The position numbers were made by a program, and so were the translations under genes. Of a DNA stretch of 64,000 bases, positions 34,190 through 62,275 are shown in pieces. The number at the start of each line of letters is the position of its first letter. Position 1 is the first letter of the stretch. Source of the stretch: Cyanidioschyzon merolae (taxonomy: Eukaryota); NCBI GenBank assembly GCA_000091205.1, contig AP006498.2; one strand, written 5' to 3'. The notes beneath the pieces were generated by a model. That model searched no databases, was not told where the DNA came from, and worked only from the letters and a program-made list of their open reading frames with translations.

Positions 34190-34500
34190 TGGGAGCTCGA
34201 AAGCACGTGATCGCTCCTGATTGGAAAGCATCTCATATATGCAGGGTACCAGTACGACCGGAAGTTTTCTTGTGCGTTCATAGCACTTCCAATTGGGAAG
34301 CATCTCATATATGCACGGTACCAGCAAGACAGGAAGTTTTCTTGTGCGTTCATAGCACTTCTGATTGCGAAGCATCTCATGTTTGCAGTGTACCAGTAAG
34401 ACAGGAAGTTTTCTTATGCTTCCATAGCACTCCTCATTGGGACGCATCTCACGTATGCACATGGTGCTCGAGCTGGCGGTTCCGAGCGATGCACCTCTTC
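34190..34500. repeat. Tandem repeat, 72-bp unit x about 4.3
   Basis: Unit starts at 34225, 34297, 34369 and 34441 ('gaagcatctcatatatgcacggtaccag.aagacaggaagttttcttgtgcgttcatagcacttc..attg.'). Seen in the ORF track as the reiterated peptide 'EASHICTVPARQEVFLCVHSTSDC'. Confidence 0.8.
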
Positions 34501-35038
34501 GATAAGAGGCAGCGTAGGCTTGCTCAGACTCTGTTTGCGCCTTACCCTCAAGGAGCGTAGACTGGATTCGCTTGCCAGTGGTGCTTCCGAACTCTATGTA
34601 AATCGGAATTCAGAGTGCGGTGTCGGCCTAATTACCGCCTAAATGCATGAGTGATTGGAATGGAACATGGAACTGGTCGCCATGTTCCTAAATTTCGGAT
34701 TTTTCCGAACTTTGTTTCGTGGCACTGCCACCGCATTCGGAGTGCAGCAATAAGGACTTTTGGATTCATGCATAGTTTTCAGGTTTTCGGTCATTTTTTG
34801 GAATGGTTCCTTTGACGCTGTGCTGCTGAATTTCGTTAAGATACGGTCCTCAGGTGGATTCGCGACGTCCTCGAACAACGGTTCGAAGAATGGCCGGTTT
34901 TATCATCCCATTCAGGCGTGCAAGAATGCACGCTTCTCTTGTCCTCAGGCACAGCATGCGCAAAATACATATTCTTCTTTTTTTGATCCATCCGTTTGAC
35001 GGTTTCGCGTAGGCGCCGCACTTCGCACTGGTAGGTGC

Positions 35039-35930
35039 TCAAGGCAAAATCTTGACGTCTTCGCTTGAGGACTGGTTCGCGAGCTCATACCGAAAGTTCA
35101 CTGAACTTGGTACGTCAAGTAACGGATTTTGCTGGAAATGCAAATCCTCCTTTCTTGAAGGCAATCGGCGGAACGGGACGCAACAGCAGTTAGGTGTCGC
35201 CCTCGGGATATGCTCGCTGAACGCTCCCCTTCCTCTTTTGTTCGTGTGGCAAAGGGTTATGTGCTCGGATATGAGCCCTGACAAAGAACGCTTTCAGTGG
35301 AGCGCGCGTCACAGCTTTACATGAACGAGGCGTAGACGGATCGAAGCTTCTCGAATTGTCCTCCGACTTTGGGTTTTGTATTCAATACTTGTTTCATCAT
35401 GAGCAACGTCGCGTTCCACAGATCCTTTTTCGGATAGAACGGCGTACCGAGGAGTGTGCAGTGGACAACCTACTCACCGAGGGACTTACCCTGAAGAGGC
35501 TCGTAATCGTCCTGTACGGTATTGGGCACGGAAACGAAGGAAGGCATCAAAGGGCGCGCATTGAACCCGTCAAGGGTATATAACGGGCAATGAAGAGAGC
35601 GCTCTCGCGCTCAAGGGCAGCGCCCGAAGGACGAGTAGGATTAGCAAGAGGTGTACTGGTCCCATTGGAACACCTAACAGCAGTCAACTGCCACCGCTAC
35701 GAAGCCGGCTTTCAGGCTTTATGCACAGATGATGAAAATGGCAAGTCAAGCGTAGCTCGCAATTTCCACCTGCACATGAAATGCATAGACAAGTTCCCGA
35801 AGCGGTAAAACCGGGACATGCACACTGCCATCAGCATCCTTCGACTGATAATAACAGAGCTGGGAGACAAGAGAGATCGGTGTATTTAGGGCCGGAGACA
35901 CAATAGAGGTCCAGGGAGCACTCATGGATG
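35039..35930 (+). pseudogene. Degenerate family-2 TnpB/Fanzor-like element: repeat X (35039..35324) plus a RuvC-like C-terminal fragment (35356..35808) and a 3' tail
   Basis: 'LVIVLYGIGHGNEG'. 'GVLVPLEHLTAVNCHRYEAGF' resembles a RuvC-II 'EYRTSKVC'-like box. 'RNFHLHMKCIDKFPKR' is homologous to 43902..44246 'RSLNLFVKCANKYRKRVHWDVKSAINILRQ'. The tail 35810..35930 resembles 44190..44310. Confidence 0.35.
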
Positions 35931-36266
35931 AGGCCTCCAAAGGCCGCTTTTGACGGCACTGAGTGCTATCTAAATATTAGTGTGCACGGTCGAGTTAGAC
36001 GATCCGTTCCATTTTATTCTTGCATGGGTATAAATAGATGAGCATGTGAGTCGAACCACCGCTAACAGGAACTCGAAATGCTCTGGCGGCGGTCCGGGTG
36101 CACTGGTCAACAAGTGACGCCATGGCTTACGCCACGAAAGGTAAAACCCGTATTGGGATGATCTGTACGGTCGCTTTCGGGCTCGGGTACCCTAGAAGCT
36201 TTGCGTTCCGTTCGTGCGCTTCGTTGCCTGGTTGTGAGTTTTCTATAGGTACGAGAAGCTCAGCGA

Positions 36267-40847: not shown

Positions 40848-42107
40848 TTATTTTCTCTTGCCGGATCCTACAGCTTTCATGCTCGCTTGTGTGTCATTGC
40901 TGGCGGAATCAGCAACCGGAATCGATGCAGACTGCTTGGGCTGTTGGCTGCGAGCAAGGGGATTCGACATGCTTATGATCCGCTCGTAGTCTCTTGGCAA
41001 TAAATGTCTGACCGCGTCCCGCTCTTCAATAAGTTCTTTTCGTGTGCGCTCCATCATGCTGGCACTGAACTCGTCGACCGGGAGCTCCAAGATACGACGA
41101 AAATGTGCACCAGGGCAGAGGCAGGGCACGGAATACCAGAGACATGCATCGATTCCATACGAGCCATCACTTGGCACCGACATAGACAGCCACTTATTAC
41201 CAGCGCCGAGCCACAGATCCCGCATATGATCGATTGCTCCATTAGCCGCAGATGCGGCTGAACTGGCACCACGAGCCTCAATCACCTCCGCACCGCGTTT
41301 CTGAATCCGAGGGATGAACTCGTTTCTGTACCAGTCTTCATCGATGCGTGGACGGATCCATTCGCCGCGTACCAGGGCATGTGACAGATCTGGGTACTGC
41401 GTCGTCGAGTGATTACCCCAGATGATGACACGCTCCACCTCGGCGACATCACAGTGCATCTTCAGCGCAAGCTGCGTGATAGCGCGATTCTGATCGAGGC
41501 GGCTCATCGCGGTAATCTGCTCTGCCCAAATATCCGGAGCGTTTGCTGCCGCCACCAGCGCGTTGGTGTTCGCGGGGTTCCCGACGACGAGGACTCGGAC
41601 CTCACGCGACGCTACCTTGTTCAGTGCCCGACCTTGTTCAGCAAATATCTGCGCGTTAGAGGCCAGCAGATCGCGGCGCTCCATGCCAGGCCCTCGAGGC
41701 TTTGCACCGACCAGAATCGCAAAGTCTGCATCCGCAAAGCCCTTATCCACCTGGTCTGTCGCACTGACGCTCTTTAGCAGCGGAAACGCACAATCCTCCA
41801 GTTCCATAACGACGCCACGAAGCGCCTTCATGCCTTGTGGCGTCTCAATGCAGCTGAGATGTATCGGCTGATTCTTTCCCAACATTTCTCCCGAAGCGAT
41901 GCGGGTTACAAGTTGGTAGCCGATTTGTCCGGCAGCACCGGTGACGGCCACCCGCAAAGGCGGCAGCAGATCCGACAACTTTCCAACAGCACCACTACCA
42001 GAAGCAGCACCAGCAGCACTCTTAGGTGACGCGGTTGCCTCCGTTGCCAGCCATCTGCAACCCAGGCGTTGGACCAGCCTCGCTCCAAAGCGTCGTGCTA
42101 CGTTCAT
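40848..42107 (-). CDS. MDH: Malate dehydrogenase (LDH/MDH superfamily, cytosolic-type GAAGQIGY class) with N-terminal (about 45 aa) and C-terminal (about 60 aa) extensions
   Basis: '[15 protein letters not shown]', '[15 protein letters not shown]', '[13 protein letters not shown]', '[21 protein letters not shown]'. The ORF-track start at 42149 is a TTG. First ATG ([11 protein letters not shown]..., presequence-like) is at revcomp 42105..42107. Confidence 0.85.
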
Positions 42108-43149
42108 CAGCGAGTCAACAAGGGAGTTCAAGGCACCGTGCAGCAGCAAGTCAACCGTTTCAAGCGACGCGATGCGACTCGTGGTATCGATGATTCCTTC
42201 ATCGACGTCGTCGAGCGCTGGCGCTATATTCGTGGTGGCGGCGGCAGTGGCGGCGGCGGCTATTCGTCAACTGCCGTACGGCGTTACCGCCTCACAGGCG
42301 TGCCTCTCGAAGCTTGGACACAGAGGTAGCGGTGGTGTAGCGTGTGCGTCCGGGGAAACGGAAACGCTGACGCTTTGTGAACGCTGCTGCGGGATCGCAG
42401 TGACTGGGAGGGAGCACACGCCTCCGAGTCAGAGCACGTGCACGGGGTTGGCTAGCATAGTGCTGTGGAAGGCTGCTCGAGGCTGACAGCAGTCACCTGG
42501 GTACGAGCTCGCTGAAGAGAGTCTGAGGCAAGGCGCTTGCGGGAGTGGTGCGCTCTTGGCACAGCGATTTCACAACTGGGAAGCGAGTGCGGTAACGTCG
42601 GTGCGCGTGTTGCTAGGGCGGGGTGATGGCTGATGAGGAGGTACGTGGACCTGCGTGCCTGTGCTCCTGCTGTTTGGCATTGTGAGTGGGCGTGAACGTC
42701 GTATTTCGAGTTGACGGCACCCGGAGGTTCGCTGGATCGAGTCAGTATTCGTTAGCGAAGCAGTGCTGCGGGGTGTTGGCGTGCGATCGTGTGCGTTGTA
42801 GCAATAGCGCCGTTGTGCTAGTGACTTGCCGCGTGCATGAACCAAGCGTCCCTTCCTTGGCGGAGTACTCGCATGGTGGCCTTGGAGCTCGGAAGCGTCC
42901 CCAGAAGCAATGAAGTCCATGCTCTAAAGACTGGCAGTGTGCGCGTCTCTGGTGGCTTTTGGACAGAAGCACCGAACCTGGTCTACGCGCGAGAGAAATT
43001 AGAATGGAATACTGAACTGCATGCTCGATTCCTGCCTTGCGGATTCATTCCCGAACTTTTGTCATGTATACAGCTTCGATATCTGTAGTCCATGAAAGAG
43101 CTCTTTCGGATGCGAATGCGTCTTCGGACTCGCAATCGTCCATTTCGGA

Positions 43150-44310
43150 GTGACTCCATCGGCGCTGTGCTGCTCGAACTCAAAAAGTCACCGAAATCAA
43201 GACGATTCTCGACGCAGCAGAACGACGGTTCGTAAAATAACTGGTATCGTTATCCGACGCGCACGAACAAGCCTCCACTCTTGTCTGTTCCCTAGGTGTA
43301 GCATGCTCAGATCACGCAAGCTCCTAGTTTGCCGATCTTTCTGTTTTCAGGCAAATCGTAGAGACGGCAGTTGGCGCCGCAGGGATGGCGATCAGGAAAC
43401 TCAACGTTGTCACTTGACGGCTTGTTCACAAGATGGTGCCGAAAGCTCACTACACTTTTCATGTCTAATAATTGATTCCGTTCGAGCGACACATCCCGCT
43501 CTCTTCATGCCTATCGACGAGACTGAACTCGACAGCAGCCGCAGCAGCCGCAGCATGCTTCTGACGAGGTATGATCCCAGAGGCGTTCGTGTCTTCTGCT
43601 TCCATGGAAAAGCTTCTTGGACTCGGACGTCGATCATCGCAGCGACCGCTTCCATTTGCGAGCGGATCACCGGTTTGCACGAAGGGAGCGTAGACGGATC
43701 GAAATAGCTCGACTTGTCCCCGAGCCCGTATTTTCCTTCCGGTACTTGTTTCACCTTGGACAACACCGCGTTCCCCAAATCGTCTAAAGAATGGAGCAGC
43801 ATGCGCTTGTGCGTGCAAGGGACGGAGCACTCGCCGGCGTATTGTCCAGAACGGGCCCGTGATCGTTGGGTACGGCACCGGGTACGGAAACGGAGTAGCG
43901 CATGCTGGGCGATGCTTCTCCACTCGGAAAGGGCTTGTGCCAAGCGAGGCATTGTTCATTTATGCGCCAGGGGGCAGCGATCAGAGGAGGCATTGCGGGC
44001 GTATTGGAACACCTGGCCACAGCCAAGCGTCACCGCTGCGAATGGCGCACCCATTCTGTCTACGAAGACGGTGGAACTGGCAAGCGAAGCGCAGGTCGCA
44101 GCTTGAACCTGTTCGTCAAGTGCGCCAACAAGTACCGGAAGCGGGTGCATTGGGACGTCAAATCTGCCATCAACATCCTTCGGCAGCTGATAACGGAGCT
44201 GGAGCGACACGAGAGACCGGCATATTTCAAGCCGGATGCGCCATAGAGGAACAAAGAGCAGTCGTAGATACCGCGGGCAAAGGCTGGTGTCGTAGGTGAG
44301 AACTGGATGA
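43150..44310 (+). pseudogene. Degenerate family-2 TnpB/Fanzor-like element inside the left palindrome arm (mirrored copy at about 50241..51407, minus)
   Basis: Repeat X 43150..43707, then 'IVGYGTGYGNGV' (43859..), 'GVLEHLATAKRHRCEW' and 'VHWDVKSAINILRQ' (about 44163..44195, a degenerate NAAxNI RuvC-III box) across shifted frames. The tail 44255..44310 'gcagtcgtagataccgcgggcaaaggctggtgtcgtaggt' resembles the family-1 3' tail 'gcagtagtaggtgcccggtccatgaagactgggaggcgtccgtacgt'. Confidence 0.4.
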
Positions 44311-44637
44311 GACCCAGTATAATGATTACATATGCCCGAGTTTGTTAAGTGGAACGTTTCAATTTATTCTGAAATGGACGTAGGGCATCGATGTCCTTCA
44401 TCAAGCACCTTGTGCAGCACAGAAAATGAACCAGAATTGTTCGCTTGTGTGTCGAGGCGGCAAACTCCTCCGCACAATATCCCCGGCCGAAATGCTCTCA
44501 CACGGGCTCAGAGACATCTCTCTGGCATTGACATCCGATGCTCCAGGCTAGCTCGTACTAGGTGGCGCACTCTTCTAATACGAGACAGCAGACATGCACG
44601 TGTGTTGCACCGAGCGACAACGCGCCGGCGACGTCCT

Positions 44638-46014
44638 TCAGTAGCCCAGGTACCTCACTGGGGGTTTCTTCTTCCGACGTGTGCCGTCTGCGAAGCCGTC
44701 CCGACGATCATCGGTTTCATCGCTATCACCGCGTAGGTCGTGCACAAACCCCCGGAGGCTGGCCATCACTTTGTGGGCTTGGCGTCGCAGTTCAGCAGCG
44801 CGAAGCTGCTCGAATGCATCGTAGGTTCGCGAGCCGCTCGTTCCGACATCCCGCGGTCTACGCCGCAAGTGCTGAAACTTTTGCCATCCAGGAACCGCCT
44901 CATACCGGTGATCGCGCATAATTGGAAAGCAGTTGAAACCCTCCTCGCCGGGAAGTGGCTCCTCCGCAATAGACTCAATGGTGGGCAGTTTGATGCAGTG
45001 GTCATCCACCATCGTGGCAAAATCTACGCGTTGACTCGACAAATAATCGTCAAAGTCCAGGCTGTCAGGCGCAATGCGAAATACATTGGCAAGCTCGTCT
45101 GCGACATGCAGCCAGCCAATGTAGATGAGAAAAACAGAAAGCACGTAAATAATGTCCAGCCAGCGATAGTTTCCAATATCGATGCTGCTGGACGTTGCGC
45201 TCAATAAATTCAGATTTCCCGCGAGCAGTATGACACAAATCACGTAGATGCGCACTGTTGCGTTCACGAGCTGGCGGTACATCAGCGGAACTGGAACCCA
45301 CATGGGCACATATAAATAACCGAAATATCCGCGCACGAGCGCAAGCTGCTGCACAAGCTGAAGATGAACGAATTCCGTGATGCCGTAGCGGTGGTTCTGA
45401 TCACGCAGGCGAGAAAGCAAGTGCCCAGCCCACATGACTGGCATCGTCCACTGGGCTCTGTCTACATCATTCTCCAGCCGGTATCGCTCCTCAGGTGTGA
45501 TCAAGCCAATACGTTCCATGGCCTCAGTGGTGCGGTACGCATGATCACCGCCAAGAAAAACATCGCGAAGCACCATAGCGAACGGAATGCAGATCCACCG
45601 GACAATGAGTTGCTTCAACCGTGCAGCGCCGATAGGGTCGTTATCATCATACACGAAGGACGTCATCTCGAGAGCAATATTGTAGGCAGCGATTTGGCCA
45701 GTGCCACACATGACAACACGAACACTCCACCAACGGGAATAGATTGTGCTAGTATAAAACCCCAGCATAAAGGTAAGAATTGGCGAAAGGACACTGACAA
45801 GTGCTGCGAGAGTATTCAGGAAGGGTATCGGCCATTCTGCAACGTAGAGCTTGAGCGCTATCACGAGCACTGCGGCACCGATCCAGGAAAGAAGTTCAAA
45901 GAGCAACCGCTGGACCAATGAGCCGTACCAATGAAAGAAGACTCTAGTCCATGAAAGGGGAAATACATAGTCTTTCCCGAACGTGGCTATGGGATCCTTG
46001 TAGTAGATTGTCAT
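44638..46014 (-). CDS. Bestrophin-like (Bestrophin/RFP-TM/UPF0187 family) putative anion channel, 458 aa. Copy 1 of an identical pair
   Basis: 'LTFMLGFYTSTIYSRWWSVRV' matches the bestrophin 'F.LGFYV...RWW' motif. 'WLHVADELANVFRIAPDSLDFDDY' resembles the bestrophin 'NPFGEDDDDFE' box. Multiple TM helices. Genuine ATG (mirror of 48537). Confidence 0.7.
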   Translation of the reverse strand: MTIYYKDPIATFGKDYVFPLSWTRVFFHWYGSLVQRLLFELLSWIGAAVLVIALKLYVAEWPIPFLNTLAALVSVLSPILTFMLGFYTSTIYSRWWSVRVVMCGTGQIAAYNIALEMTSFVYDDNDPIGAARLKQLIVRWICIPFAMVLRDVFLGGDHAYRTTEAMERIGLITPEERYRLENDVDRAQWTMPVMWAGHLLSRLRDQNHRYGITEFVHLQLVQQLALVRGYFGYLYVPMWVPVPLMYRQLVNATVRIYVICVILLAGNLNLLSATSSSIDIGNYRWLDIIYVLSVFLIYIGWLHVADELANVFRIAPDSLDFDDYLSSQRVDFATMVDDHCIKLPTIESIAEEPLPGEEGFNCFPIMRDHRYEAVPGWQKFQHLRRRPRDVGTSGSRTYDAFEQLRAAELRRQAHKVMASLRGFVHDLRGDSDETDDRRDGFADGTRRKKKPPVRYLGY

Positions 46015-46353
46015 CTCTGGGAAACAAACGTGCCGCGTACCAGGTAAAGGCGTCGCTGGCCTGTGGAAACCTCTTCGGGCTCTTCAAATACGCACAAACA
46101 CCGCTTGGGTGCTTGCGCAACTCTGATTTGTGCTTTGGTCGTCGAACGGGGACTCGCTCGCTCTTGAACAGCAGCCGCACTCGAGCCGTGTGCACGTTTC
46201 CAACCTACGAAAACGCGAACTCCCGCTTCCAGCAGGTATCCTGATCTTGTTGCCTCTACGGTCAGGACGCGCAGTAAGCCTGGTTCACGTACGTACCGAC
46301 TATTTACCGGTGATAGTCGTCCGATCGCAGTGAGACCTACGGCGTCCCGTGTG

Positions 46354-47030
46354 TTTCGCAATCTGTCTGCAATAGCCGTTAGACAACCTGTTTATGGTTG
46401 CTTTGTGGCTCTGTGGCAAACACACACGCCGACACCGAACACTTTCCAAAAGTCGAACGACGCCAGCGCTGTACAGTACTGGCGAGAAGCCCGCCCTAGA
46501 CAAGAAGTCTCCAGCTGACGTACGGACGCCTCCCAGTCTTCATGGACCGGGCACCTACTACTGCTTCCAATTGTTTCTCATATAGTTCCACTTTGGGAGG
46601 TTGCCCCCACAAAATTCTCTCTTGTCAGCGCTGGAGGTCTGCTTTCCAGCACCGCACATCTCCTGATATTGATGGCGGCATTAAAGTCTCGGTTCACAAA
46701 CTCCATACGTTTCTTGCCATCACTGGTTGTACTCACTAGTGCGAGTAGCCCTCGAACTTTCGCCCTTGTTTCCATTTGCTCCTCCGTCAGCGGTCCGTAC
46801 TTTTCTATGTCTTCAGGGCTCCGCTGGCACTTTTCCATCCCGACCCTCTTAAGTACGCACCCCAGTTCATGGTGTGTATAGGACGTTCGGAACCCATCTA
46901 TCGGTATCGTAACAAAACGCTGTGCGCACTCCCTGTATGTTCTTGTCGACGGAGCTGGTACACATTCTTTTTGGGTCTTCCATCGCCCTGCTCCGTATGC
47001 CACTACGAGCCTCTGACGCTCGTCCTCCTT
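46354..47030 (-). mobile_element. Fanzor family-1 copy B: 3' half only (C-terminal about 150 aa plus conserved 3' tail), in the left palindrome arm
   Basis: ORF 46578..47123(-): '...KEDERQRLVVAYGAGRWKTQ...RFVTIPIDGFRTSYTHHELGC...SDGKKRMEFVNRDFNAAINIRRCAVLESRPPALTRENFVGATSQSGTI'. RuvC-III is intact (about 46651..46691). The RuvC-II position carries G ('IDGFRTS'). The tail 46354..46577 mirrors 47974..48197. Confidence 0.6.
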
Positions 47031-47039
47031 CATAATCCA

Positions 47040-48197
47040 TTTCCGTCTTCGATATTGTACGTGACGAAGCATGAAGATGAGAAGGAGGCGGGTCCTGCGA
47101 CGCAGAAAGTGCATGAGAACCACTTTGTCGTTGGCGCGGGCCCTGGGAACACGAATATCATGACCATCACAACACGCCGTTGTGGGGATGATGGCGTCGA
47201 CGGCAACTTACGTCAAAAAACACACGCGTGTTTTAAAGCGCTAAAGAACGAGATATTACCGAGAGTTCGGTGTGATGAATGCAAAGAAGAAAAGTGGAAC
47301 GTGGAGTGCTGGAGTGAAAAAGCACCTGGAAGCGATCAGCCAGGTGACGAGCCGAGAAGCGGACTTTAAAGCTTTTCGGAAATTCATGGAAGTTCGTGTT
47401 GCTCACTGGGATGCGCTGTGGGAGGGGCATACAAAGCCCCGGTGGGCTCGTCTGCGAATGAATCTATACTGTGGCAAGCAGCGCGCATTCGCGAACTTTT
47501 TCAACCAGCTGAGCGCCGTGAAGGAGGACGAGCGTCAGAGGCTCGTAGTGGCATACGGAGCAGGGCGATGGAAGACCCAAAAAGAATGTGTACCAGCTCC
47601 GTCGACAAGAACATACAGGGAGTGCGCACAGCGTTTTGTTACGATACCGATAGATGGGTTCCGAACGTCCTATACACACCATGAACTGGGGTGCGTACTT
47701 AAGAGGGTCGGGATGGAAAAGTGCCAGCGGAGCCCTGAAGACATAGAAAAGTACGGACCGCTGACGGAGGAGCAAATGGAAACAAGGGCGAAAGTTCGAG
47801 GGCTACTCGCACTAGTGAGTACAACCAGTGATGGCAAGAAACGTATGGAGTTTGTGAACCGAGACTTTAATGCCGCCATCAATATCAGGAGATGTGCGGT
47901 GCTGGAAAGCAGACCTCCAGCGCTGACAAGAGAGAATTTTGTGGGGGCAACCTCCCAAAGTGGAACTATATGAGAAACAATTGGAAGCAGTAGTAGGTGC
48001 CCGGTCCATGAAGACTGGGAGGCGTCCGTACGTCAGCTGGAGACTTCTTGTCTAGGGCGGGCTTCTCGCCAGTACTGTACAGCGCTGGCGTCGTTCGACT
48101 TTTGGAAAGTGTTCGGTGTCGGCGTGTGTGTTTGCCACAGAGCCACAAAGCAACCATAAACAGGTTGTCTAACGGCTATTGCAGACAGATTGCGAAA
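47040..48197 (+). mobile_element. Fanzor family-1 copy B-prime: 5'-truncated pseudogene (RuvC-I region through C-terminus plus 3' tail), spanning the palindrome spacer and right arm
   Basis: 46776-frame: '...HEDEKEAGPATQKVHENHFVVGAGPGNTNIMTITT', where RuvC-I Asp is replaced ('VGAGPG' versus 'VGLDTG' in copy A, about 47118..47145). It then shifts into the 47272..47973 frame: '...TWSAGVKKHLEAISQ...MEFVNRDFNAAINI...'. The region upstream of 47040 is the inverted arm, so the N-terminus is absent. The 3' tail ends with 'gattgcgaaac' at about 48187..48197. Confidence 0.6.
47974..48197 (+). ncRNA. Candidate omega-RNA-like conserved 3' segment of Fanzor B-prime (mirror copy at 46354..46577, minus)
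   Basis: Directly follows the stop at 47973: 'gtgggggcaacctcccaaagtggaac...agcagtagtaggtgcccggtccatgaagactgggaggcgtccgtacgt...ggctattgcagacagattgcgaaac'. It shares the conserved blocks of copy A and of copies at 56040..56150 and 63870..63985, and carries an extra insert of about 150 nt relative to A. Confidence 0.35.
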
Positions 48198-48536
48198 CAC
48201 ACGGGACGCCGTAGGTCTCACTGCGATCGGACGACTATCACCGGTAAATAGTCGGTACGTACGTGAACCAGGCTTACTGCGCGTCCTGACCGTAGAGGCA
48301 ACAAGATCAGGATACCTGCTGGAAGCGGGAGTTCGCGTTTTCGTAGGTTGGAAACGTGCACACGGCTCGAGTGCGGCTGCTGTTCAAGAGCGAGCGAGTC
48401 CCCGTTCGACGACCAAAGCACAAATCAGAGTTGCGCAAGCACCCAAGCGGTGTTTGTGCGTATTTGAAGAGCCCGAAGAGGTTTCCACAGGCCAGCGACG
48501 CCTTTACCTGGTACGCGGCACGTTTGTTTCCCAGAG

Positions 48537-49913
48537 ATGACAATCTACTACAAGGATCCCATAGCCACGTTCGGGAAAGACTATGTATTTCCCCTTTCAT
48601 GGACTAGAGTCTTCTTTCATTGGTACGGCTCATTGGTCCAGCGGTTGCTCTTTGAACTTCTTTCCTGGATCGGTGCCGCAGTGCTCGTGATAGCGCTCAA
48701 GCTCTACGTTGCAGAATGGCCGATACCCTTCCTGAATACTCTCGCAGCACTTGTCAGTGTCCTTTCGCCAATTCTTACCTTTATGCTGGGGTTTTATACT
48801 AGCACAATCTATTCCCGTTGGTGGAGTGTTCGTGTTGTCATGTGTGGCACTGGCCAAATCGCTGCCTACAATATTGCTCTCGAGATGACGTCCTTCGTGT
48901 ATGATGATAACGACCCTATCGGCGCTGCACGGTTGAAGCAACTCATTGTCCGGTGGATCTGCATTCCGTTCGCTATGGTGCTTCGCGATGTTTTTCTTGG
49001 CGGTGATCATGCGTACCGCACCACTGAGGCCATGGAACGTATTGGCTTGATCACACCTGAGGAGCGATACCGGCTGGAGAATGATGTAGACAGAGCCCAG
49101 TGGACGATGCCAGTCATGTGGGCTGGGCACTTGCTTTCTCGCCTGCGTGATCAGAACCACCGCTACGGCATCACGGAATTCGTTCATCTTCAGCTTGTGC
49201 AGCAGCTTGCGCTCGTGCGCGGATATTTCGGTTATTTATATGTGCCCATGTGGGTTCCAGTTCCGCTGATGTACCGCCAGCTCGTGAACGCAACAGTGCG
49301 CATCTACGTGATTTGTGTCATACTGCTCGCGGGAAATCTGAATTTATTGAGCGCAACGTCCAGCAGCATCGATATTGGAAACTATCGCTGGCTGGACATT
49401 ATTTACGTGCTTTCTGTTTTTCTCATCTACATTGGCTGGCTGCATGTCGCAGACGAGCTTGCCAATGTATTTCGCATTGCGCCTGACAGCCTGGACTTTG
49501 ACGATTATTTGTCGAGTCAACGCGTAGATTTTGCCACGATGGTGGATGACCACTGCATCAAACTGCCCACCATTGAGTCTATTGCGGAGGAGCCACTTCC
49601 CGGCGAGGAGGGTTTCAACTGCTTTCCAATTATGCGCGATCACCGGTATGAGGCGGTTCCTGGATGGCAAAAGTTTCAGCACTTGCGGCGTAGACCGCGG
49701 GATGTCGGAACGAGCGGCTCGCGAACCTACGATGCATTCGAGCAGCTTCGCGCTGCTGAACTGCGACGCCAAGCCCACAAAGTGATGGCCAGCCTCCGGG
49801 GGTTTGTGCACGACCTACGCGGTGATAGCGATGAAACCGATGATCGTCGGGACGGCTTCGCAGACGGCACACGTCGGAAGAAGAAACCCCCAGTGAGGTA
49901 CCTGGGCTACTGA
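48537..49913 (+). CDS. Bestrophin-like protein, copy 2 (identical to 44638..46014)
   Basis: Identical 458-aa translation. Genuine ATG at 48537. Confidence 0.7.
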   Translation: MTIYYKDPIATFGKDYVFPLSWTRVFFHWYGSLVQRLLFELLSWIGAAVLVIALKLYVAEWPIPFLNTLAALVSVLSPILTFMLGFYTSTIYSRWWSVRVVMCGTGQIAAYNIALEMTSFVYDDNDPIGAARLKQLIVRWICIPFAMVLRDVFLGGDHAYRTTEAMERIGLITPEERYRLENDVDRAQWTMPVMWAGHLLSRLRDQNHRYGITEFVHLQLVQQLALVRGYFGYLYVPMWVPVPLMYRQLVNATVRIYVICVILLAGNLNLLSATSSSIDIGNYRWLDIIYVLSVFLIYIGWLHVADELANVFRIAPDSLDFDDYLSSQRVDFATMVDDHCIKLPTIESIAEEPLPGEEGFNCFPIMRDHRYEAVPGWQKFQHLRRRPRDVGTSGSRTYDAFEQLRAAELRRQAHKVMASLRGFVHDLRGDSDETDDRRDGFADGTRRKKKPPVRYLGY

Positions 49914-52372
49914 AGGACGTCGCCGGCGCGTTGTCGCTCGGTGCAACACACGTGCATGTCTGCTGTCTCGTATTAGAAGAGTGCGCCACCTAGTACGAGC
50001 TAGCCTGGAGCATCGGATGTCAATGCCAGAGAGATGTCTCTGAGCCCGTGTGAGAGCATTTCGGCCGGGGATATTGTGCGGAGGAGTTTGCCGCCTCGAC
50101 ACACAAGCGAACAATTCTGGTTCATTTTCTGTGCTGCACAAGGTGCTTGATGAAGGACATCGATGCCCTACGTCCATTTCAGAATAAATTGAAACGTTCC
50201 ACTTAACAAACTCGGGCATATGTAATCATTATACTGGGTCTCATCCAGTTCTCACCTACGACACCAGCCTTTGCCCGCGGTATCTACGACTGCTCTTTGT
50301 TCCTCTATGGCGCATCCGGCTTGAAATATGCCGGTCTCTCGTGTCGCTCCAGCTCCGTTATCAGCTGCCGAAGGATGTTGATGGCAGATTTGACGTCCCA
50401 ATGCACCCGCTTCCGGTACTTGTTGGCGCACTTGACGAACAGGTTCAAGCTGCGACCTGCGCTTCGCTTGCCAGTTCCACCGTCTTCGTAGACAGAATGG
50501 GTGCGCCATTCGCAGCGGTGACGCTTGGCTGTGGCCAGGTGTTCCAATACGCCCGCAATGCCTCCTCTGATCGCTGCCCCCTGGCGCATAAATGAACAAT
50601 GCCTCGCTTGGCACAAGCCCTTTCCGAGTGGAGAAGCATCGCCCAGCATGCGCTACTCCGTTTCCGTACCCGGTGCCGTACCCAACGATCACGGGCCCGT
50701 TCTGGACAATACGCCGGCGAGTGCTCCGTCCCTTGCACGCACAAGCGCATGCTGCTCCATTCTTTAGACGATTTGGGGAACGCGGTGTTGTCCAAGGTGA
50801 AACAAGTACCGGAAGGAAAATACGGGCTCGGGGACAAGTCGAGCTATTTCGATCCGTCTACGCTCCCTTCGTGCAAACCGGTGATCCGCTCGCAAATGGA
50901 AGCGGTCGCTGCGATGATCGACGTCCGAGTCCAAGAAGCTTTTCCATGGAAGCAGAAGACACGAACGCCTCTGGGATCATACCTCGTCAGAAGCATGCTG
51001 CTGCTGCGGCTGCTGCGGCTGCTGTCGAGTTCAGTCTCGTCGATAGGCATGAAGAGAGCGGGATGTGTCGCTCGAACGGAATCAATTATTAGACATGAAA
51101 AGTGTAGTGAGCTTTCGGCACCATCTTGTGAACAAGCCGTCAAGTGACAACGTTGAGTTTCCTGATCGCCATCCCTGCGGCGCCAACTGCCGTCTCTACG
51201 ATTTGCCTGAAAACAGAAAGATCGGCAAACTAGGAGCTTGCGTGATCTGAGCATGCTACACCTAGGGAACAGACAAGAGTGGAGGCTTGTTCGTGCGCGT
51301 CGGATAACGATACCAGTTATTTTACGAACCGTCGTTCTGCTGCGTCGAGAATCGTCTTGATTTCGGTGACTTTTTGAGTTCGAGCAGCACAGCGCCGATG
51401 GAGTCACTCCGAAATGGACGATTGCGAGTCCGAAGACGCATTCGCATCCGAAAGAGCTCTTTCATGGACTACAGATATCGAAGCTGTATACATGACAAAA
51501 GTTCGGGAATGAATCCGCAAGGCAGGAATCGAGCATGCAGTTCAGTATTCCATTCTAATCTGATAGCCCCGTCGGCGACGAGGATCTCAGAGTCGGATTG
51601 CACCTGCACTGATTCCGGGGATCTTGGTGTGCATGATGGAAATCTTTGGAAAATGTTCTGCGAATGATGGAACACGGGAAGTGTTGGACGCTTCCACCGT
51701 GCGCCCAGCTCTTTCTGATGCCTCCGAAAATGGAATTTTCGGAGCGCTCTCGGACACTAGTCTTGTGTGCGGTGCTTTGCACTCGATGGACGCAAAGAGT
51801 ACCGAAGCGAATCCTCACGAAGTTACGGATTCGCGCTCATTCAAGCAATCCCGGAGACATACCATAGAGTTGACATCGACGTTGCGCTGCCTCGGACCTT
51901 ACCAGGGATTGGTCACAGCACAAACGTCGGCGTCGCTCATGCTGCAGCGCCGGCGCTCTAGGCTCACTGTGGGCCCCCCTATCAAGCACTTGGCCCCGGA
52001 GGATTGCACGAAGCGACGGTTATCTCCAAAGAAAAGCGCGCGTGGTTGTTGTTGGGGCTTGAAGATCTGTTGCCGCGGAATGGACGCTCTCTCTGATGCC
52101 GTCAACCCTCGCGCAGTCAAGGATTCCTTCGAGTGTGTAAACGAATCTACACACCCCTGTGGGAAATCGCTCGTGCGAGAGAAGATGTACTTTTAGGGAC
52201 AATAATGTATGTCTTGTACGTCCGTGCGCGTGGCCTCGACAGCAGCGCAGCACCTGCACCTTGCAGTCGTTTCGAGCGCGCAGCCAGTGCTTGTTGTAAA
52301 CGACCTAGTCTAGGGTTGCTGGGGCGGTCCTCGCGTCAGGCTGTCCGCCCGACACACCTTGCAATAGGCACC

Positions 52373-53815
52373 ATGCCGATTATGTACATGGATCCCGTGG
52401 CGAACCTGGGGAAGGACTACGTTCTTCCCCTTTCCTGGGTGCGCATATTTCTCTACTGGCACGGAAGCCTCTTGCAGCGCTTGCTGTTCGAAGTGTGCAT
52501 CCTGTTCGGTCTCGCTGCTTTTATTATTGCCATGAAGCTTTACGTTGCAGAGTGGCCACGCTTCCTTCTAGAAGTCTTTGCAAATATTGTCAACATTCTT
52601 TCAGGCGTGTTGACGCTCCTGCTGGGGTTCTATGCCAGCACCATCTACAGCCGCTGGTGGTACACGCGCACGAACATGTTCGGGACCGCGCAAGGTGGAG
52701 TGTACAACTGCGGTTTCATGTTGAACGCGCTCGTCTACGACGATGAGAATCCGGAACTTTGCGCCCGCTTTAAGCAGCGGTTTCTCCGTTGGATGAACCT
52801 CGCTTTCGGAATCATGCTCATGGACGTCACCTCTGGTGGATCGCATCTCTTCGAGTCCTTTGATAGCATGGAACGCATCGGTTTGGTGACCCCCGAGGAG
52901 CGCTATCGCCTGGAGCATGACGTGGAGCGTGTGCGCTTCACGCTGCCCATTATGTGGGCGGGTCATATGCTTACGCGCCTCCGGGATAATAATCACCAGT
53001 TTCACATTACGGATCGGGTACACATGCAGCTGTCGATCGAGTTGGCTTACTTGCGGCAGGGTCTCGGTGGATGCTATCTCATGAAGAACACACCGGTGCC
53101 GCTTCTCTATGTGCAGTTCGTGGAGGTTGCTGTCCGAATGTACGTTATTAGCATGATTCTGCTTGTAGGTGATTTGAACTTGCTGTCTGGAACCTTTCAA
53201 GAACGCGGCAACGATAGATGGGTCGATCTCGTCTACATCGCAGCGCTGTTTTTCATCTACGTCGGCTGGCTTCATGTAGCGGAGGAACTTGCAAACCCCT
53301 TCCGAATAGCCCCGGATGGACTCGATTTGGATGACCTTCTCTCCGGACAACGATGCGATGTGATGACCATGTCCGACTCGACGCGTCAACGTTTACCGAA
53401 ACCCGAGGTGATTCAGGAAGCGCCGCTTCCAGGAGAGCAGGGCTGGTATTTGCCGATTATAACCCGAGATCACAGCTACGAGCCTGTTCCCTACTGGTAC
53501 AGTTTTTGGTACAATCTCATCCGTCGCCGAAAGTGCAGCACCGCGCCTTCACCTCATTCCATTATTTGGGGATTCTATCCCGAGAAACAGCCGCTGCTTA
53601 CCGAGCCAGAAAAGAAACATGCAGCATCAAATCCATCGGCGTGGTCCAACGTAGTGCATGTACACCCGGGAGCTTCACAACATTGGAACGTGAGTCACCG
53701 CAACGACGGGCCAGCGCCCATGGCCTCACATTGCCCAAGCGGGCTGGTCAGTTCGGGTTTCGGCGGACTTGGTGTGGATAGCAGCAGTGCTGACGGCGGC
53801 GGCAGTGTATTATGA
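52373..53815 (+). CDS. Bestrophin-like paralog (about 480 aa) with a Gly/Ser-rich C-terminal tail
   Basis: 'MPIMYMDPVANLGKDYVLPLSWVRIFLYWHGSLLQRLLFE...LLLGFYASTIYSRWWYTRT...WLHVAEELANPFRIAPDGLDLDDL' is collinear with the 44638..46014 protein. The ORF-track ORF starts at 52133. The ATG at 52373 aligns with the paralog N-termini. Confidence 0.65.
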   Translation: MPIMYMDPVANLGKDYVLPLSWVRIFLYWHGSLLQRLLFEVCILFGLAAFIIAMKLYVAEWPRFLLEVFANIVNILSGVLTLLLGFYASTIYSRWWYTRTNMFGTAQGGVYNCGFMLNALVYDDENPELCARFKQRFLRWMNLAFGIMLMDVTSGGSHLFESFDSMERIGLVTPEERYRLEHDVERVRFTLPIMWAGHMLTRLRDNNHQFHITDRVHMQLSIELAYLRQGLGGCYLMKNTPVPLLYVQFVEVAVRMYVISMILLVGDLNLLSGTFQERGNDRWVDLVYIAALFFIYVGWLHVAEELANPFRIAPDGLDLDDLLSGQRCDVMTMSDSTRQRLPKPEVIQEAPLPGEQGWYLPIITRDHSYEPVPYWYSFWYNLIRRRKCSTAPSPHSIIWGFYPEKQPLLTEPEKKHAASNPSAWSNVVHVHPGASQHWNVSHRNDGPAPMASHCPSGLVSSGFGGLGVDSSSADGGGSVL

Positions 53816-55567: not shown

Positions 55568-56150
55568 GTTTTTCACCTAAATTGTGTTCCACTCCTCCGG
55601 TGCGTGTCATCAAATGCGTGTTCGCGGTTTATAGCGGATTCGTTCGAAGTAGGTTCATTTCCAAAAATAAAAATCTAAGGATCAGGTATCGACATGCAAG
55701 GCGGGGATCCAGGAGGACCCTCATCACTGGCTGCCTGAGTAAAAAACGAAACAAATCCTCTTCTCGCCGATCATCGAGCGAAGAAGAGCAAGTGACCAGG
55801 AAGAAAAAGGCGAAGAAGATGACGATGAGAGATCGGCGAGAAAATGTATTTGGTCAACGGAACGATGACGTCCCTTTGGTGGCAAAGAGGGCTCGCGTTC
55901 TGACAACTATTTTAAAGGTGAGCTCAACCAGAGGCAATAAACGCATAGAGTTCGTGAACCGAGACTTCAACGCCGCCATCAATATCATGAGATGCACGGT
56001 GCTGGAGACGAGACCCGAGGAGCTGAGGCGATCCAAGTTTGTGAGGCAGCCTCTCAGGCTCGTTCTGTGCATGAATAAACCTAAATCGATAGCAGGGTCG
56101 CGGTCGAACAGGGCAGGGACGCGTCTACGGGTGGGTATTCACGCACCCTG
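55568..56150 (+). mobile_element. Internally deleted Fanzor family-1 derivative C (about 0.58 kb: left end plus last about 60 codons plus 3' tail)
   Basis: Left end 'tcacctaaa...catttccaaaaataaaaatctaagga' (55571..55670). 'RARVLTTILKVSSTRGNKRIEFVNRDFNAAINIMRCTVLETRPEELRRSKFV' at about 55900..56045 has an intact RuvC-III box. Tail 56040..56150 'gtgaggcagcctctcaggctcg...gcggtcgaacagggcagggacgcgtctacgg gtgggtattcac'. The 216-aa ORF-track ORF 55531..56181 is not a host gene. Confidence 0.5.
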
Positions 56151-58281
56151 CTTGCTCGTGGGACTTTGTTTCTTTCATTGACGATAACAGTGACGATAAT
56201 CACGGACAGAATATCCACCTGTGTGCACTTTGTAAAGCTCCTGAAACCTAGGCCACAGTCGAGTAACGAAGCTCATTGTCTACCGTTCAGGGTAGATCAA
56301 GAGACAGACTTCGGGGTCGGCGTGGACCCGGGAGCTGCAGGATGTCACGCCCGATTTTTAACCTCTGAATGAGGAGGCCGGCGCCAAAGACCTACTCGGA
56401 AGGAAGCTGACCCTGTTCAAGCTTTCCAGGGCAGGGGATTATCGAGATTCGGGCATAACGTTCGCCAGCAGGGATACCAGCAAGTGGAACGACGGCGTCC
56501 GGGCCCGACTCTCGACGCTCTGGACACCGTATCGAGCAGACGGGGGCATGCTTTGCACGCTTGATTCATAGATCATATGAGCCTCAAAACGTCTCCTGCG
56601 GGCGGTCTTTGGCAGCAGTACACACGGGCGCGCGGGGTCGGAAACCGATTCGGTTGAACGGAGGCAGCCATCGTGTATGCGCCAACTTGTCAGATGTGTT
56701 CGAACGAGAAATGATCGACACGTCGCGCTGTTTCGCGGAAGCCTAAGGCGCTGGACGTGGTTTAACGCGCATGAATGCGCTCCTACTCTTCGACCAGAGC
56801 GTGCAACGAGTGCAGGAACCGATCCTCAACGATACCCCAGCCCTGAGTTCGGGACGGCGTGCACGCATCCCGAGCACAGGTGCATGCTGAAACTGGTAGC
56901 AAAGAAGAGACGGAAATAAAGTTGGATGCTCGAGCTGGTGTACGGTAAGCTGACTGTGTGTCAGATGGCGAGCGAGTCGCAAGTGCGACGCGTGCTACAA
57001 TCTGAGTCCACCGCCATCCATGAGAGAAAGCAACTTCTGCACCGATATCTCAAAGCCTTGAAAAGCGTACGGAAATGTCTCGTGCCTCCGAAGAGTTCGG
57101 TGGCTTTGTGTGGCGCGAGCTTTCGGGAATTATTTCGTATCCTATCCATGCATTGTGCTGAAACACAGAAGAGTATTTATAAAAAATCAGGGCCAGGAGC
57201 GAGGGGGCGGCCTTCGTTTCTCGCCCGGAGCAAGGCTCTGGTATGGTACGATTCAGCTACCGAACGACATTGGTGCACCGTACACATACATCGTCAATGA
57301 TTTTCCTCGGCAACTGATACACCATTATTTGAGACGACGAATATAGAACAGAGTCAAATTGATGGATCAAAGCAGGTGAGCGGGGGCATAGACCTTGCGT
57401 TTCCGCAGACGGATTCCGGATGATGCCGCTTGTGTGATTTTTTCGTTGACAAGTCGCCCGCAGGGGACACGAACCTCCAAGTTCCCACAGAGAGGACACT
57501 TTGAGGCCAGTGCTGGACCGCACGGCCTGCAAGACCTGTGTTCGCTCCATACCCCTGTAGTATCTCCTATGGACGTGCTTTCCACGACTTATTCTGTCCA
57601 AACGAGCGTTTGCCCACAAAGATCTGGTCCATCAAAGTTGAGTTCAAGGCACAAGCGCAAGTAAAGCCAATTTTGGGCCCTGTACAATATGCAGGTGGCC
57701 TTCACAGCATACGCTTCGTTCCTCGTTTACGACGCGGCGAACGAGTGCTTCCGCGGAGGCGACCACGCACACAACCCCTGAAACTGAGCAGCTACAAACT
57801 GCATTAGTGGACCTGGAAGACCTGTTTCTCCTGCTTTGTATTCGTCTCGTCATCGAGCCCAGCGTATTCAGTAAACTTCCGTGCAAGTCACGGTTTACGT
57901 GCAGGTTTTCTTCGTAGACTCCGCCTTGTCCTGGAGAGTTTACGCTCGATTACGAGCAGCCTCGTAGGTAAACTTCGAAACAATTCGCCATTTACGTGCA
58001 GATGCCTATCCAGATGCTGCGACGTCCTGCTGAAATCACTCTCGTAGACGTGCAGTTTCGTGCAGGCCGCCCCTAGTTCTGTTCGAACTCGCGCGTCCAG
58101 CAGCGAGCCTCGTTGCTGAGCGCTGCGCTCGGCACCGAATGCCTCTGCGGCTTGCACATGCTCGCTCAGAAGCGTTCGTGTTGCACTGGGGGGTTCATCG
58201 CAGCGTACGCCAAGTCACTGTGACCAGATCATAACGTTTCGGCTTCCGCTACGCGGCTTATACGGTGAGTTCGTGCGCCGG

Positions 58282-60892: not shown

Positions 60893-62275
60893 TCAGAATC
60901 CGTAGTACCGGATCCTTTCGGGAGGTCCGGTCCAACATCGGGTGGTGCCACGTAGTGACGTGTTGCCCTGCAGTCCGATGCTTTGGGCCCAGTCCGTCTG
61001 CGTCGGAGCTGTGGTATCGTCGGTTGCGAACGTCTCCTCATCCGAGAGCAGGCGTTGGCGCACCCGCTGGAAAAAGTCGTATGTCTTTGCATGGCCGTCT
61101 TGTCGACTTGCTTTGACGGTCCGAATATACTCCTTGTACTTGTTCCAGCCTGGGACCGCCTCGTAAGCGTGATCACGCCACACGAACGGACAATTCCAGT
61201 TCGGATCGCCCGGTAGGGGCTCGTCGTTGATGGAATCCACTGTGGGCAAGCGGATACTGTTGTCGTCGACCATAGTGGCGTGGTCCGCTCGCTGACTCGA
61301 GAGATAATCGTCAAAATCGAGGCCATCTGGGGCTATTCGGTACGGATTTGCGAGCTCGTCTGCAACGTGCAACCAACCAATATAAATGAAGAAGACGCTC
61401 ACAATGTAGACCATATCGGTCCAACTGTAGTTGGCGGAATCCGTCCCCGAGCTGGTGGCACCCAAAAGCTGCAGGTTCCCAGCAAGCAGGACGACAACGA
61501 GAATATAGATTCGTACAGCGGCACTCACAAGCTGCCGGTACATAAGAGGCACTGGCACTGTCACAAAAACGTACATGCTTCCGAGGCCTTGACGAAGGCT
61601 TGCCAACTGCTGTGAGAGCTGCAAGTGGACCCAATGCGTCACTCCGTAGTTCGGCTCGTGGTCTCGCAGGCGCGTAAACGTGTGTCCCGCCCACATCAGA
61701 GGCAGCGTGAAACGAACTCGGTCCACGTCGTGCTCAATGCGTTGGCGCTCCTCTGCCGTCATCATGCCGAGCTGCTCCAGGGAATCAAAGGAGTTGTACA
61801 GGTGCGTTCCATCGGTTATAATCTCACGCAACACGAGCGCAAACGCGAGGTTGCACCAACGCACAATTCGCTGTTTGAGACGTGCAGCTGTTATCGGGTC
61901 CTTGTCGCTGTAAATAAACTGAGTCATCTCCATGGCGATGTTGTAGGCGGCCATCTGCGCGGTGCCACACATGGAGACGCGCGCGTCCCACCAGCGCGAG
62001 TATATCGTGCTCGTGTAAAAACCCAGCATAAACGTGAGAATTGGAGATAGCACGTTCGCCAAAATCGCCAAAACAAGGAGAAACGCATGAGTCCACGTCG
62101 CAACGTACAGCTTGAGCGCGATCACGAGCGCCGCCAGCGCTAGCCATAAGATTATTTCGAACAGCAGCCGCTGCATCAGAGAACCGTGCCAGTAAAAAAA
62201 GAGCCGCAACCATGACAGGGGCAGAACATAGTCTTTCCCGAAAGTGGCAACGGGGTCTTTGTACAGGATGGTCAT
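60893..62275 (-). CDS. Bestrophin-like paralog (about 460 aa)
   Basis: 'MTILYKDPVATFGKDYVLPLSWLRLFFYWHGSLMQRLLFE...LTFMLGFYTSTIYSRWWDARV...WLHVADELANPYRIAPDGLDFDDY'. The start was taken at the ATG (MTILYK) aligned with the other paralogs. The ORF-track ORF extends to 62302 from a TTG. Confidence 0.65.
   Translation of the reverse strand: MTILYKDPVATFGKDYVLPLSWLRLFFYWHGSLMQRLLFEIILWLALAALVIALKLYVATWTHAFLLVLAILANVLSPILTFMLGFYTSTIYSRWWDARVSMCGTAQMAAYNIAMEMTQFIYSDKDPITAARLKQRIVRWCNLAFALVLREIITDGTHLYNSFDSLEQLGMMTAEERQRIEHDVDRVRFTLPLMWAGHTFTRLRDHEPNYGVTHWVHLQLSQQLASLRQGLGSMYVFVTVPVPLMYRQLVSAAVRIYILVVVLLAGNLQLLGATSSGTDSANYSWTDMVYIVSVFFIYIGWLHVADELANPYRIAPDGLDFDDYLSSQRADHATMVDDNSIRLPTVDSINDEPLPGDPNWNCPFVWRDHAYEAVPGWNKYKEYIRTVKASRQDGHAKTYDFFQRVRQRLLSDEETFATDDTTAPTQTDWAQSIGLQGNTSLRGTTRCWTGPPERIRYYGF

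Follow-up and report, generated by a model that had tools for sequence, protein, structure and literature searches.

We analyzed a 64,000-nucleotide (nt) window of contig AP006498.2, which belongs to chromosome 16 of Cyanidioschyzon merolae 10D, a red alga; all positions given below are those of this window. Within it lies an 8.6-kb palindrome whose two inverted arms flank a single-copy spacer. Each arm carries a bestrophin gene, best1, together with the 3′ end of a Fanzor element and a decayed copy of a second dispersed repeat. A malate dehydrogenase (MDH) gene stands to the left of the palindrome, and a further bestrophin gene, best2, to the right. The features are listed here in order of position, with lengths of proteins in amino acids (aa) and with L numbers denoting environmental or related-genome contigs. 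The environmental ones come from wild Cyanidioschyzon populations that are 97-99% identical to 10D and are represented in many public metagenomes.

40848-42107, minus strand: MDH gene of the left flank, assigned by Pfam; a 419-aa gene call in L004
42998-47032: left arm, 4035 nt, the derived inverted copy, adjoining the MDH flank at the novel outer junction 42997/42998
42998-44311, plus strand: mirror copy of the second dispersed repeat
43533-43555: microsatellite (CAG)n(CCG) of the left arm, 23 nt
44638-46014, minus strand: best1, left-arm copy, 458 aa, PF01062/PF25539
46431-47032, minus strand: left-arm mirror of the Fanzor 3′ end with its tail
47033-47518, plus strand: single-copy spacer, the middle of a dead CMe-1A Fanzor1 open reading frame (ORF), continuous with the right arm
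47519-51559: right arm, 4041 nt, the ancestral copy, continuous with the spacer (native Fanzor reading) and with the right flank (native best1-best2 order)
47519-48120, plus strand: 3′ end of the CMe-1A Fanzor1, consisting of residues 557-734 (frameshifted at ~699) followed by a conserved non-coding tail that reaches the end of the element at ~48120
48537-49913, plus strand: best1, right-arm copy, 458 aa, orthologous to the bestrophin that heads the tandem array of a related species
50240-51559, minus strand: decayed copy of the second dispersed repeat, filling the outer 1.3 kb of the arm as its mirror does on the left
50996-51024: microsatellite (CAG)n(CCG) of the right arm, 29 nt
52373-53815, plus strand: best2 of the right flank, identical to BAM81825.1 and in tandem with the right-arm best1, as in the related species

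Repeat finding in the window returned two blocks of 100% complementarity, 43535-47032/47519-51016 (3498 nt) and 42998-43555/51002-51559 (558 nt), which combine into the two arms around the 486-nt spacer. Self-BLAST of the window gave a single inverted alignment of 4041 nt at 99.85% identity, and its sole difference is a 6-nt indel. Arm against arm, the 10D sequence thus shows 0 substitutions and nothing else than this length change in the (CAG)n(CCG) tract. A perfect inverted repeat of 4 kb cannot have arisen by chance. A preliminary description of the locus, made from the sequence alone, had reported a near-perfect palindrome with mirrored coordinate sums of 94551 and 94557 and a 6-bp indel as the only arm difference; the analysis confirms all three, with the arm and spacer bounds refined to those listed. 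The tract itself varies in length across the population, measuring 26 nt in L004 and 38 nt in L007 and L008 as compared with 23 and 29 nt in the 10D arms. As a hypervariable marker, it could serve to tell arms and strains apart.

The best1 protein matches PF01062 (E=8.5e-34 over residues 1-313) and PF25539 (E=3.5e-15), and it is identical to two adjacent and mutually identical C. merolae 10D entries, BAM81823.1 and BAM81824.1. The one complete bestrophin gene per arm noted in the preliminary description is borne out by a 458-aa ORF with a PF01062 match on either side. In the related species (GCA_041825655.1), the gene order runs Ank, AIRS, INO1, PfkB, MDH(-), best1(+), best2(+), best3(+). In that genome, best1 is orthologous to the gene in the arms (87% identity) and best2 to the right-flank gene at 52373-53815 (83%). 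From this gene order and orthology, it follows that the right arm and the right flank keep the ancestral tandem order and that the left arm is derived. What the duplication doubles is the first gene of the bestrophin cluster. We found no paper describing the palindrome or its duplicated bestrophins, both genes being annotated in the public reference. The third gene, best3, lies at 60893-62302 on the minus strand; it is 89% identical to best3 of the relative (L087, 21157 onward, plus strand) but inverted, and is set apart from best2 by SelR, a Fanzor relic at 55879-56133 and a CBF/Mak21 gene. The bestrophin cluster therefore underwent further rearrangement.

The element at the centre of the palindrome belongs to the Fanzor1 family CMe-1A, which comprises ~150 copies that measure ~3.2 kb and have ~80% identity each to the consensus, some of them intact, and a 635-bp 5′ module that is also found alone (Bao & Jurka 2013, PMC3627910). 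With the 734-aa CMe-1 Fanzor1 consensus protein (Additional file 3 of PMC3627910) as the query, tblastn aligned residues 456-699 to 47215-47946 (83% identity), residues 557-699 to 47033-46605 in the left arm (87%), and residues 10-550 to the environmental contig L093 (74%). The spacer encodes consensus residues ~398-556 and is colinear with another Fanzor copy of the window at 11861-12639. One spacer junction is native and the other is novel, in that the join of left arm and spacer breaks colinearity with both this copy and the published consensus. The inner arm boundary falls at the ‘KEDERQRLVV’ codons, as had been described, corresponding to residue 557 of the 734-aa consensus. The Fanzor 3′ ‘half’ attributed to each arm, with an RNA-like tail, stands as to the tail; of the ORF itself, the arm holds the last ~178 codons only, or the final quarter. 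Homology to about 90 other CMe-1A copies stops at 48080-48139. The copy shares with the published family its 83-87% protein identity to the consensus, and the ~3-kb size, the many copies ~75-82% alike and the lone-occurring ~640-bp 5′ module likewise fit the published description (PMC3627910). It differs in being truncated, frameshifted and mutated at two of three RuvC residues, and its role would be that of dispersed homology for repair, not of a mobile or nuclease unit.

Relative to the published consensus, the palindrome copy carries a D-to-G change in RuvC-I (GADPG to GAGPG, within GAGPGNTNI) and an E-to-G change in RuvC-II (DEF to DGF, within IDGFRTS). It keeps NRDFNAAINI and carries a frameshift, and with two of its three residues mutated the D-E-D catalytic triad is not intact. 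Judged from these motifs and the frameshift, the copy is a dead relic that acted as repeated DNA and not as a nuclease. Long ORFs with the GADPG, DEFRTS and NRDFNAAINI motifs persist in some other CMe-1A copies of the population. The Fanzor protein had no match in Pfam or NCBIfam even at E<=1-10, and searches of the PDB by sequence and by profile yielded chance matches only (E>1). An AlphaFold2 model built on an 8-sequence alignment had a mean predicted local distance difference test score (pLDDT) of 35, too poor for a fold search. The profile, PDB and structure routes gave no independent support, and the TnpB link of CMe-1 rests on Bao & Jurka 2013 and on the motifs.

The non-coding tail of CMe-1A, aligned from 47880-48120 and 24 other copies, spans ~150 nt, is conserved as strongly as the ORF, and ends at the element boundary in short hairpins with conserved stems and variable loops. 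RNAalifold recovered 2 compensatory pairs only, and the tail has no Rfam match. The guides of TnpB and Fanzor are defined at the 3′ end of the element. Hairpins at the CMe-1A boundary are as expected of a Fanzor guide RNA scaffold, with weak covariation support. In addition, several CMe-1A copies (L021:3351-5519, P0124, P0130, and 47060-47120 of the window) carry 1-5 tandem units of ~19 aa resembling KHEEKKEADPATQEVQDND just upstream of RuvC-I.

The outer 1.3 kb of each arm belongs to the second dispersed repeat, a family with many loci that are 63-72% alike and with further copies in the window at ~34797-35956 (plus strand) and 8696-9172 (minus strand). We looked for an intact copy of this family, and all copies found are decayed. 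An ORF of the repeat at 50305-50649 (minus strand) carries ‘HWDVKSAINILR’, which resembles the RuvC-III motif of TnpB and is its sole TnpB-like trait. The preliminary description had called this sequence a family-2 TnpB-like relic; a decayed repeat it is, and the single RuvC-III-like motif neither confirms nor refutes the TnpB label.

We next turn to whether the duplication exists outside the reference. The telomere-to-telomere 10D genome was finished from Sanger shotgun reads, bacterial artificial chromosomes (BACs) and gap filling by polymerase chain reaction (PMC1955436), and the finishing paper describes no palindrome. In the environmental assemblies, L004, a 66.8-kb JGI contig, is colinear with window positions 26270-47451 and thereby covers the left flank, the whole left arm, the inner joint and 419 nt of the spacer. 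The junction of left flank and arm also occurs in L005, L007 and nine JGI contigs (L098-L100 and L102-L107). Passage from the spacer into the right arm is seen in L007, L008, L093 and L094, and from the arm into the right flank in L090 and L101. An exact search of metagenome contigs with a spacer 24-mer gave no match, owing to one single-nucleotide polymorphism within the pattern; the spacer is present. The two ORFs crossing the inner junctions returned no record in an exact protein look-up.

The ends of these contigs are equally informative. L005, a MEGAHIT k141 contig, crosses the left flank and continues for 141 nt of the arm before it ends. Nine right-flank contigs (L109-L117) start 141, 127, 127, 127, 127, 121, 30, 30 and 30 nt inside the arm. 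Where k is known or inferred, these offsets equal k or k-1 of MEGAHIT (141), probably metaSPAdes (127) and Logan contigs (30). L001 starts exactly at the inner arm boundary. Contig ends that follow the assembler’s k in this way are what one expects of a true repeat boundary in a de Bruijn graph. Together with the recurring junctions, the k-spaced ends indicate that the duplication exists in nature, at the same nucleotides and in many samples. The palindrome is a genuine segmental duplication, an assembly artefact being essentially excluded.

At the boundaries themselves, we found no tRNA genes and no Rfam families. Most matches to the second repeat family stop ~150 nt short of the outer boundary, and both flanks are unique, with no repeat matching between them and no sign of a repeat-mediated outer junction.

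Other populations appear to hold a larger palindrome, with 5.64-kb arms around a 1.26-kb centre. In four contigs (L007, L008, L093 and L094), the sequence directly upstream of the spacer is the 5′ Fanzor part that the 10D form lacks (residues 10-397); elsewhere these contigs are 99% identical to the window. The first 94 nt of L093 are a perfect reverse complement of its own positions 1352-1445 (Fanzor codons ~27-57), with 1257 nt between them. L008, from a different sample, starts exactly at the base equivalent to L093:1352 and ends exactly at the outer arm base 51559; with such matching end points, it represents a collapsed repeat unit of 5640 nt between two graph branch points. In L007, the longer arm passes into the left flank at the same 42997/42998 junction, and the sample of L093 itself also has a contig, L090, in which the arm passes into the right flank. 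Most of the 1257-nt centre, ~1 kb, is a paralogous CMe-1A 5′ region in inverted orientation; it contains the first ~26 codons of that copy and has 66-72% identity to other copies. Another ~200 nt of the centre come from the 5′ region of the right-hand Fanzor copy itself. At codon ~27, the two sides go abruptly from ~70% to 100% identity. We read this centre as a hybrid junction from homology-driven repair between two head-to-head Fanzor copies. Since the outer junctions are shared, both forms would go back to one duplication event, and the 10D form, which is without sequence that the larger form has, would be the derived one. No other large inverted repeat turned up beside Fanzor copies in a scan of related loci totalling ~1 Mb, made in short-read contigs that cannot hold such repeats.

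The inner joint of the 10D form is consistent with such a derivation. Alignment of the window and L004 with L007 and L008 shows the joint at 47032/47033 as CCTTCA/TA/GTCCAG in L004 and CCTTCA/TA/ATCCAT in 10D, where the native sequences are GGATC/GTCCAG and CCTTCA/CGGCGC. There is a possible microhomology of 0-1 nt, no inverted microhomology, and a 2-nt ‘TA’ filler at 47033-47034. Because inverted microhomology is absent and a 2-nt filler is present, we read the joint as an end-joined deletion and not as a site of fold-back priming. The structure in the window results if the larger form loses ~3.95 kb in all: 1589 nt from the inner end of its left long arm, the whole 1257-nt centre, and 1107 nt from the inner end of its right long arm. 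The 486-nt asymmetry of the deletion is the present spacer. As a separate observation, the deletion breakpoint at 47033-47036 coincides with the start of one of the ~19-aa KHEEKKEADPATQEVQDND-like units.

To date the duplication, we compared 17 environmental arm sequences with the 10D arm. They contain 137 polymorphic substitution columns, and each lies 14-79 substitutions from the 10D arm. L004 shares the deletion joint and has 20 arm substitutions relative to 10D, so that independent arm evolution would predict about 20 between the 10D arms as well. Since its joints are common to strains at this distance of 14-79 substitutions, the palindrome predates strain divergence, and the ‘very recent’ duplication proposed in the preliminary description is not supported. 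The ongoing gene conversion offered there as an alternative is the better reading of 100% arm identity (0 as against 14-79 substitutions). Arm-to-arm conversion is probably the simplest explanation of the identity of the 10D arms, a view drawn from a single genome. In the ~1400 nt per arm that are within read reach of unique DNA, there are 0 differences between the arms and 6-7 against L004.

Taken together, these data suggest the following history. The ancestral locus would have read MDH(-), then best1(+), best2(+) and best3, with two CMe-1A Fanzor1 copies head to head upstream of best1. A break may have been repaired via this homeologous inverted repeat, by fold-back annealing or break-induced replication, whereby an inverted copy would have been made of the right-hand Fanzor from codon ~27 on, of best1 and of the next 1.6 kb downstream, and joined to the MDH flank. 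The outer junction 42997/42998 would represent a second event that closed the duplication. The product would be a palindrome of ~12.5 kb with 5.64-kb arms and a 1.26-kb centre of two Fanzor 5′ ends, which seems to persist in some wild populations. The 10D lineage would then have lost ~3.95 kb, comprising the centre and unequal parts of the arms, with end joining leaving the 2-nt ‘TA’ and the 486-nt imbalance becoming the spacer. Since then, arm-to-arm gene conversion would have kept the arms identical, except for the fast-mutating trinucleotide repeat. We consider this course of inverted-repeat-seeded duplication, central deletion and subsequent arm conversion to be the probable one as a whole. 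Within it, the data show that the palindrome exists with the structure described, that its junctions are shared, that a larger variant exists and which arm orientation is ancestral; the pathway of repair, the sequence of events and gene conversion are inferred from them. The earlier suggestion that the palindrome nucleated at the transposon is supported as to the transposon but not as to the place: the original hybrid junction is found only in the larger variant, and the ‘KEDERQRLVV’ boundary would mark a later deletion.

We weighed this history against four other accounts. To the idea that a fold-back or chimeric join placed a second, inverted copy of a single-copy segment into the reference, as the preliminary description allowed, we give next to no credence. 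Identity of 100% over 4 kb does have the look of a collapsed-then-duplicated repeat, and the 2007 finishing paper reports misassemblies in earlier versions as well as 13 former gaps 99.4-100% identical to other regions (PMC1955436). However, the genome was built from Sanger and BAC data, which makes the fold-back chimeras of long-read libraries irrelevant as a source of error; each of the four junctions (the two outer ones, the novel inner joint and its native counterpart) recurs in independent environmental assemblies 97-99% identical to 10D; the arm portion of ten flank contigs measures exactly k or k-1 nt; each of the two genes has its own annotation; and the arms, differing at the microsatellite, were not simply copied. 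Alternatively, the palindrome may have formed recently in one step, a break at 47033 having primed at 47519, with the full-Fanzor contigs representing the unduplicated ancestor and arm identity reflecting youth. Fold-back classically gives a spacer with a native junction on one side and a novel one on the other, as is the case here (PMC3907307), and a possibly unduplicated haplotype exists (L094 and L101, ERZ27247235). Yet the novel joint has a filler in place of the inverted microhomology of fold-back priming sites, the bounds of L008 and the 94-nt inverted end of L093 mean that two separate samples each have a repeated 5.64-kb arm, and L007, which has the full-Fanzor allele, shares the outer base 42997/42998, as two independent events would not. 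Moreover, L004 has the same joint and still differs from the 10D arm at 20 sites, so the event is not recent, and a single recent step is decidedly unlikely.

The remaining two accounts accept the duplication as real. If its perfect identity were technical, reads of both arms having been pooled in the consensus, gene conversion would be unneeded. In line with this, the one difference on record is ~540 nt away from the outer boundary, where a single Sanger read still reaches unique sequence, and differences deeper in the arms could have been averaged out. On the other hand, the ~1400 nt per arm in read reach are free of substitutions where L004 differs at 6-7 sites, and the collapsed arm contigs of several samples assemble unbroken over 3.4-5.6 kb. 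Merges in Sanger assembly are normally blocked by high-quality discrepancies. We therefore regard pooling as unlikely, while giving it some weight. Finally, an active RNA-guided Fanzor1 from an intact CMe-1A elsewhere might have cut the relics and triggered both the duplication and the central deletion. Both rearrangement points do lie inside CMe-1A sequence, some population copies keep long ORFs and motifs, and intact copies were reported by Bao & Jurka (PMC3627910). Such a role is nevertheless highly improbable: the local copy is catalytically dead, the breakpoints are away from the 3′ end of the element where guides are defined, and repeat-mediated repair accounts for the hybrid junction with no nuclease at all.

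Several points weigh against the favoured history of seeded duplication, deletion and conversion. The evidence consists of contigs that each cover part of the palindrome, and metagenome contigs can be strain chimeras. The larger palindrome is reconstructed from collapsed short-read contigs and their end points, none of which holds both arms. L101/L108 (ERZ27247235 k141_963320, a 26-kb MEGAHIT contig) runs from arm into right flank unbroken at 51559; it may be an unduplicated haplotype, or the assembler may simply have pruned a branch, and the same sample has the full Fanzor allele (L094). L004 ends 67 nt before the right arm, and the spacer orientation given here is that of the 10D reference. 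In the interior of the arms, farther than ~700 nt from unique sequence, their identity could be due in part to collapse of the Sanger consensus. At the outer junction 42997/42998, no microhomology is detectable on the readable side.

The locus has parallels among inverted duplications elsewhere. Constitutional inverted duplications in humans show hybrid Alu (82-90%) and L1 (95%) fold-back junctions (Hermetz et al. 2014, PMC3907307), and in yeast, inverted duplications arise where a double-strand break lies close to a natural inverted repeat (Al-Zain et al. 2023, PMC10622511). Like these, the C. merolae palindrome has inverted copies, a single-copy spacer in the range of 0.5 to several kb, and one native and one novel junction; the novel junction of the larger variant is a hybrid of oppositely oriented, ~70-80% identical repeats, similar to the human Alu and L1 cases. 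In contrast, the copied segment here is 4-5.6 kb long, interstitial and closed by a second junction, whereas theirs is of chromosome-arm scale with terminal deletion or translocation, and the joint of the window, being without inverted microhomology, is better read as a later deletion joint.

Primate X palindromes undergo gene conversion, and centre-biased deletions in them segregate in populations (Jackson et al. 2021, PMC8327919). The C. merolae locus resembles these and the human Y palindromes P1-P8 in being a gene-bearing inverted repeat with a spacer, in having an arm-to-arm identity far above that between lineages, and in showing structural change at the centre with a spacer-deletion polymorphism. 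It differs in the length of the arms (4 kb as compared with 8 kb-1.45 Mb), in its place on an autosome-like red-algal chromosome rather than a sex chromosome, and in holding one ion-channel gene rather than a testis gene family; conversion would here be read from a single genome. The proposed deletion also has the form of centre-directed palindrome revision. In mouse, yeast and E. coli, central deletions turn near-perfect long palindromes into stable interrupted ones. The likeness lies in an asymmetric end-joined deletion across the centre that leaves shorter arms and a new spacer. The parent here already had a 1.26-kb centre, however, so the extrusion of a hairpin or cruciform does not suggest itself as a trigger. 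Overall, we take the palindrome for a typical inverted duplication that was seeded by a transposon and later revised at its centre, with arms that probably evolve in concert; it reveals no new mechanism.

A more far-reaching interpretation would be that the palindrome is maintained in a haploid alga not known to recombine sexually, with conversion keeping two expressed copies of a bestrophin anion/bicarbonate channel identical and with the 12.5-kb and 8.6-kb architectures polymorphic under selection. We regard it as very doubtful. If true, it would mean dosage and self-repair for a bestrophin gene, as has been proposed for the Y-chromosome palindromes. It is a speculative extension of this idea that active CMe-1A Fanzor nucleases supply the breaks driving formation, revision and conversion. 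In practical terms, C. merolae 10D is a widely used minimal model eukaryote prized for its low redundancy. A knock-out of the BAM81823/BAM81824 bestrophin has two copies to remove, short reads are not assignable to either best1 copy, and targeting by homologous recombination at the palindrome may invert or delete the region. The locus offers a compact natural example of a full palindrome life cycle, from inverted-transposon seeding through revision by central deletion to arm homogenisation. Both architectures appear to segregate in wild populations, and the steps are testable in a genetically tractable organism.

Some further sequences related to Fanzor were noted. Two regions of the window, 15735-17243 (minus strand) and 56181-56633 (plus strand), have only ~30% protein identity to the CMe-1 consensus and may belong to a second, divergent Fanzor-like family; Bao & Jurka list only one Fanzor family for C. 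merolae (PMC3627910). In an unrelated metagenome, P0230 (ENA, 658 aa) is a distant homologue of the CMe-1 Fanzor, with 23-31% identity and the intact motifs CDPGRT, SEFRTT and DRDLNAAENI, which would be useful for a more diverse profile of the Fanzor1 branch. Elsewhere in the window, an intergenic 72-bp tandem repeat at 34220-34435, with 3 copies that are 82-100% alike, lies beside transposon fragments and is also present in environmental contigs.

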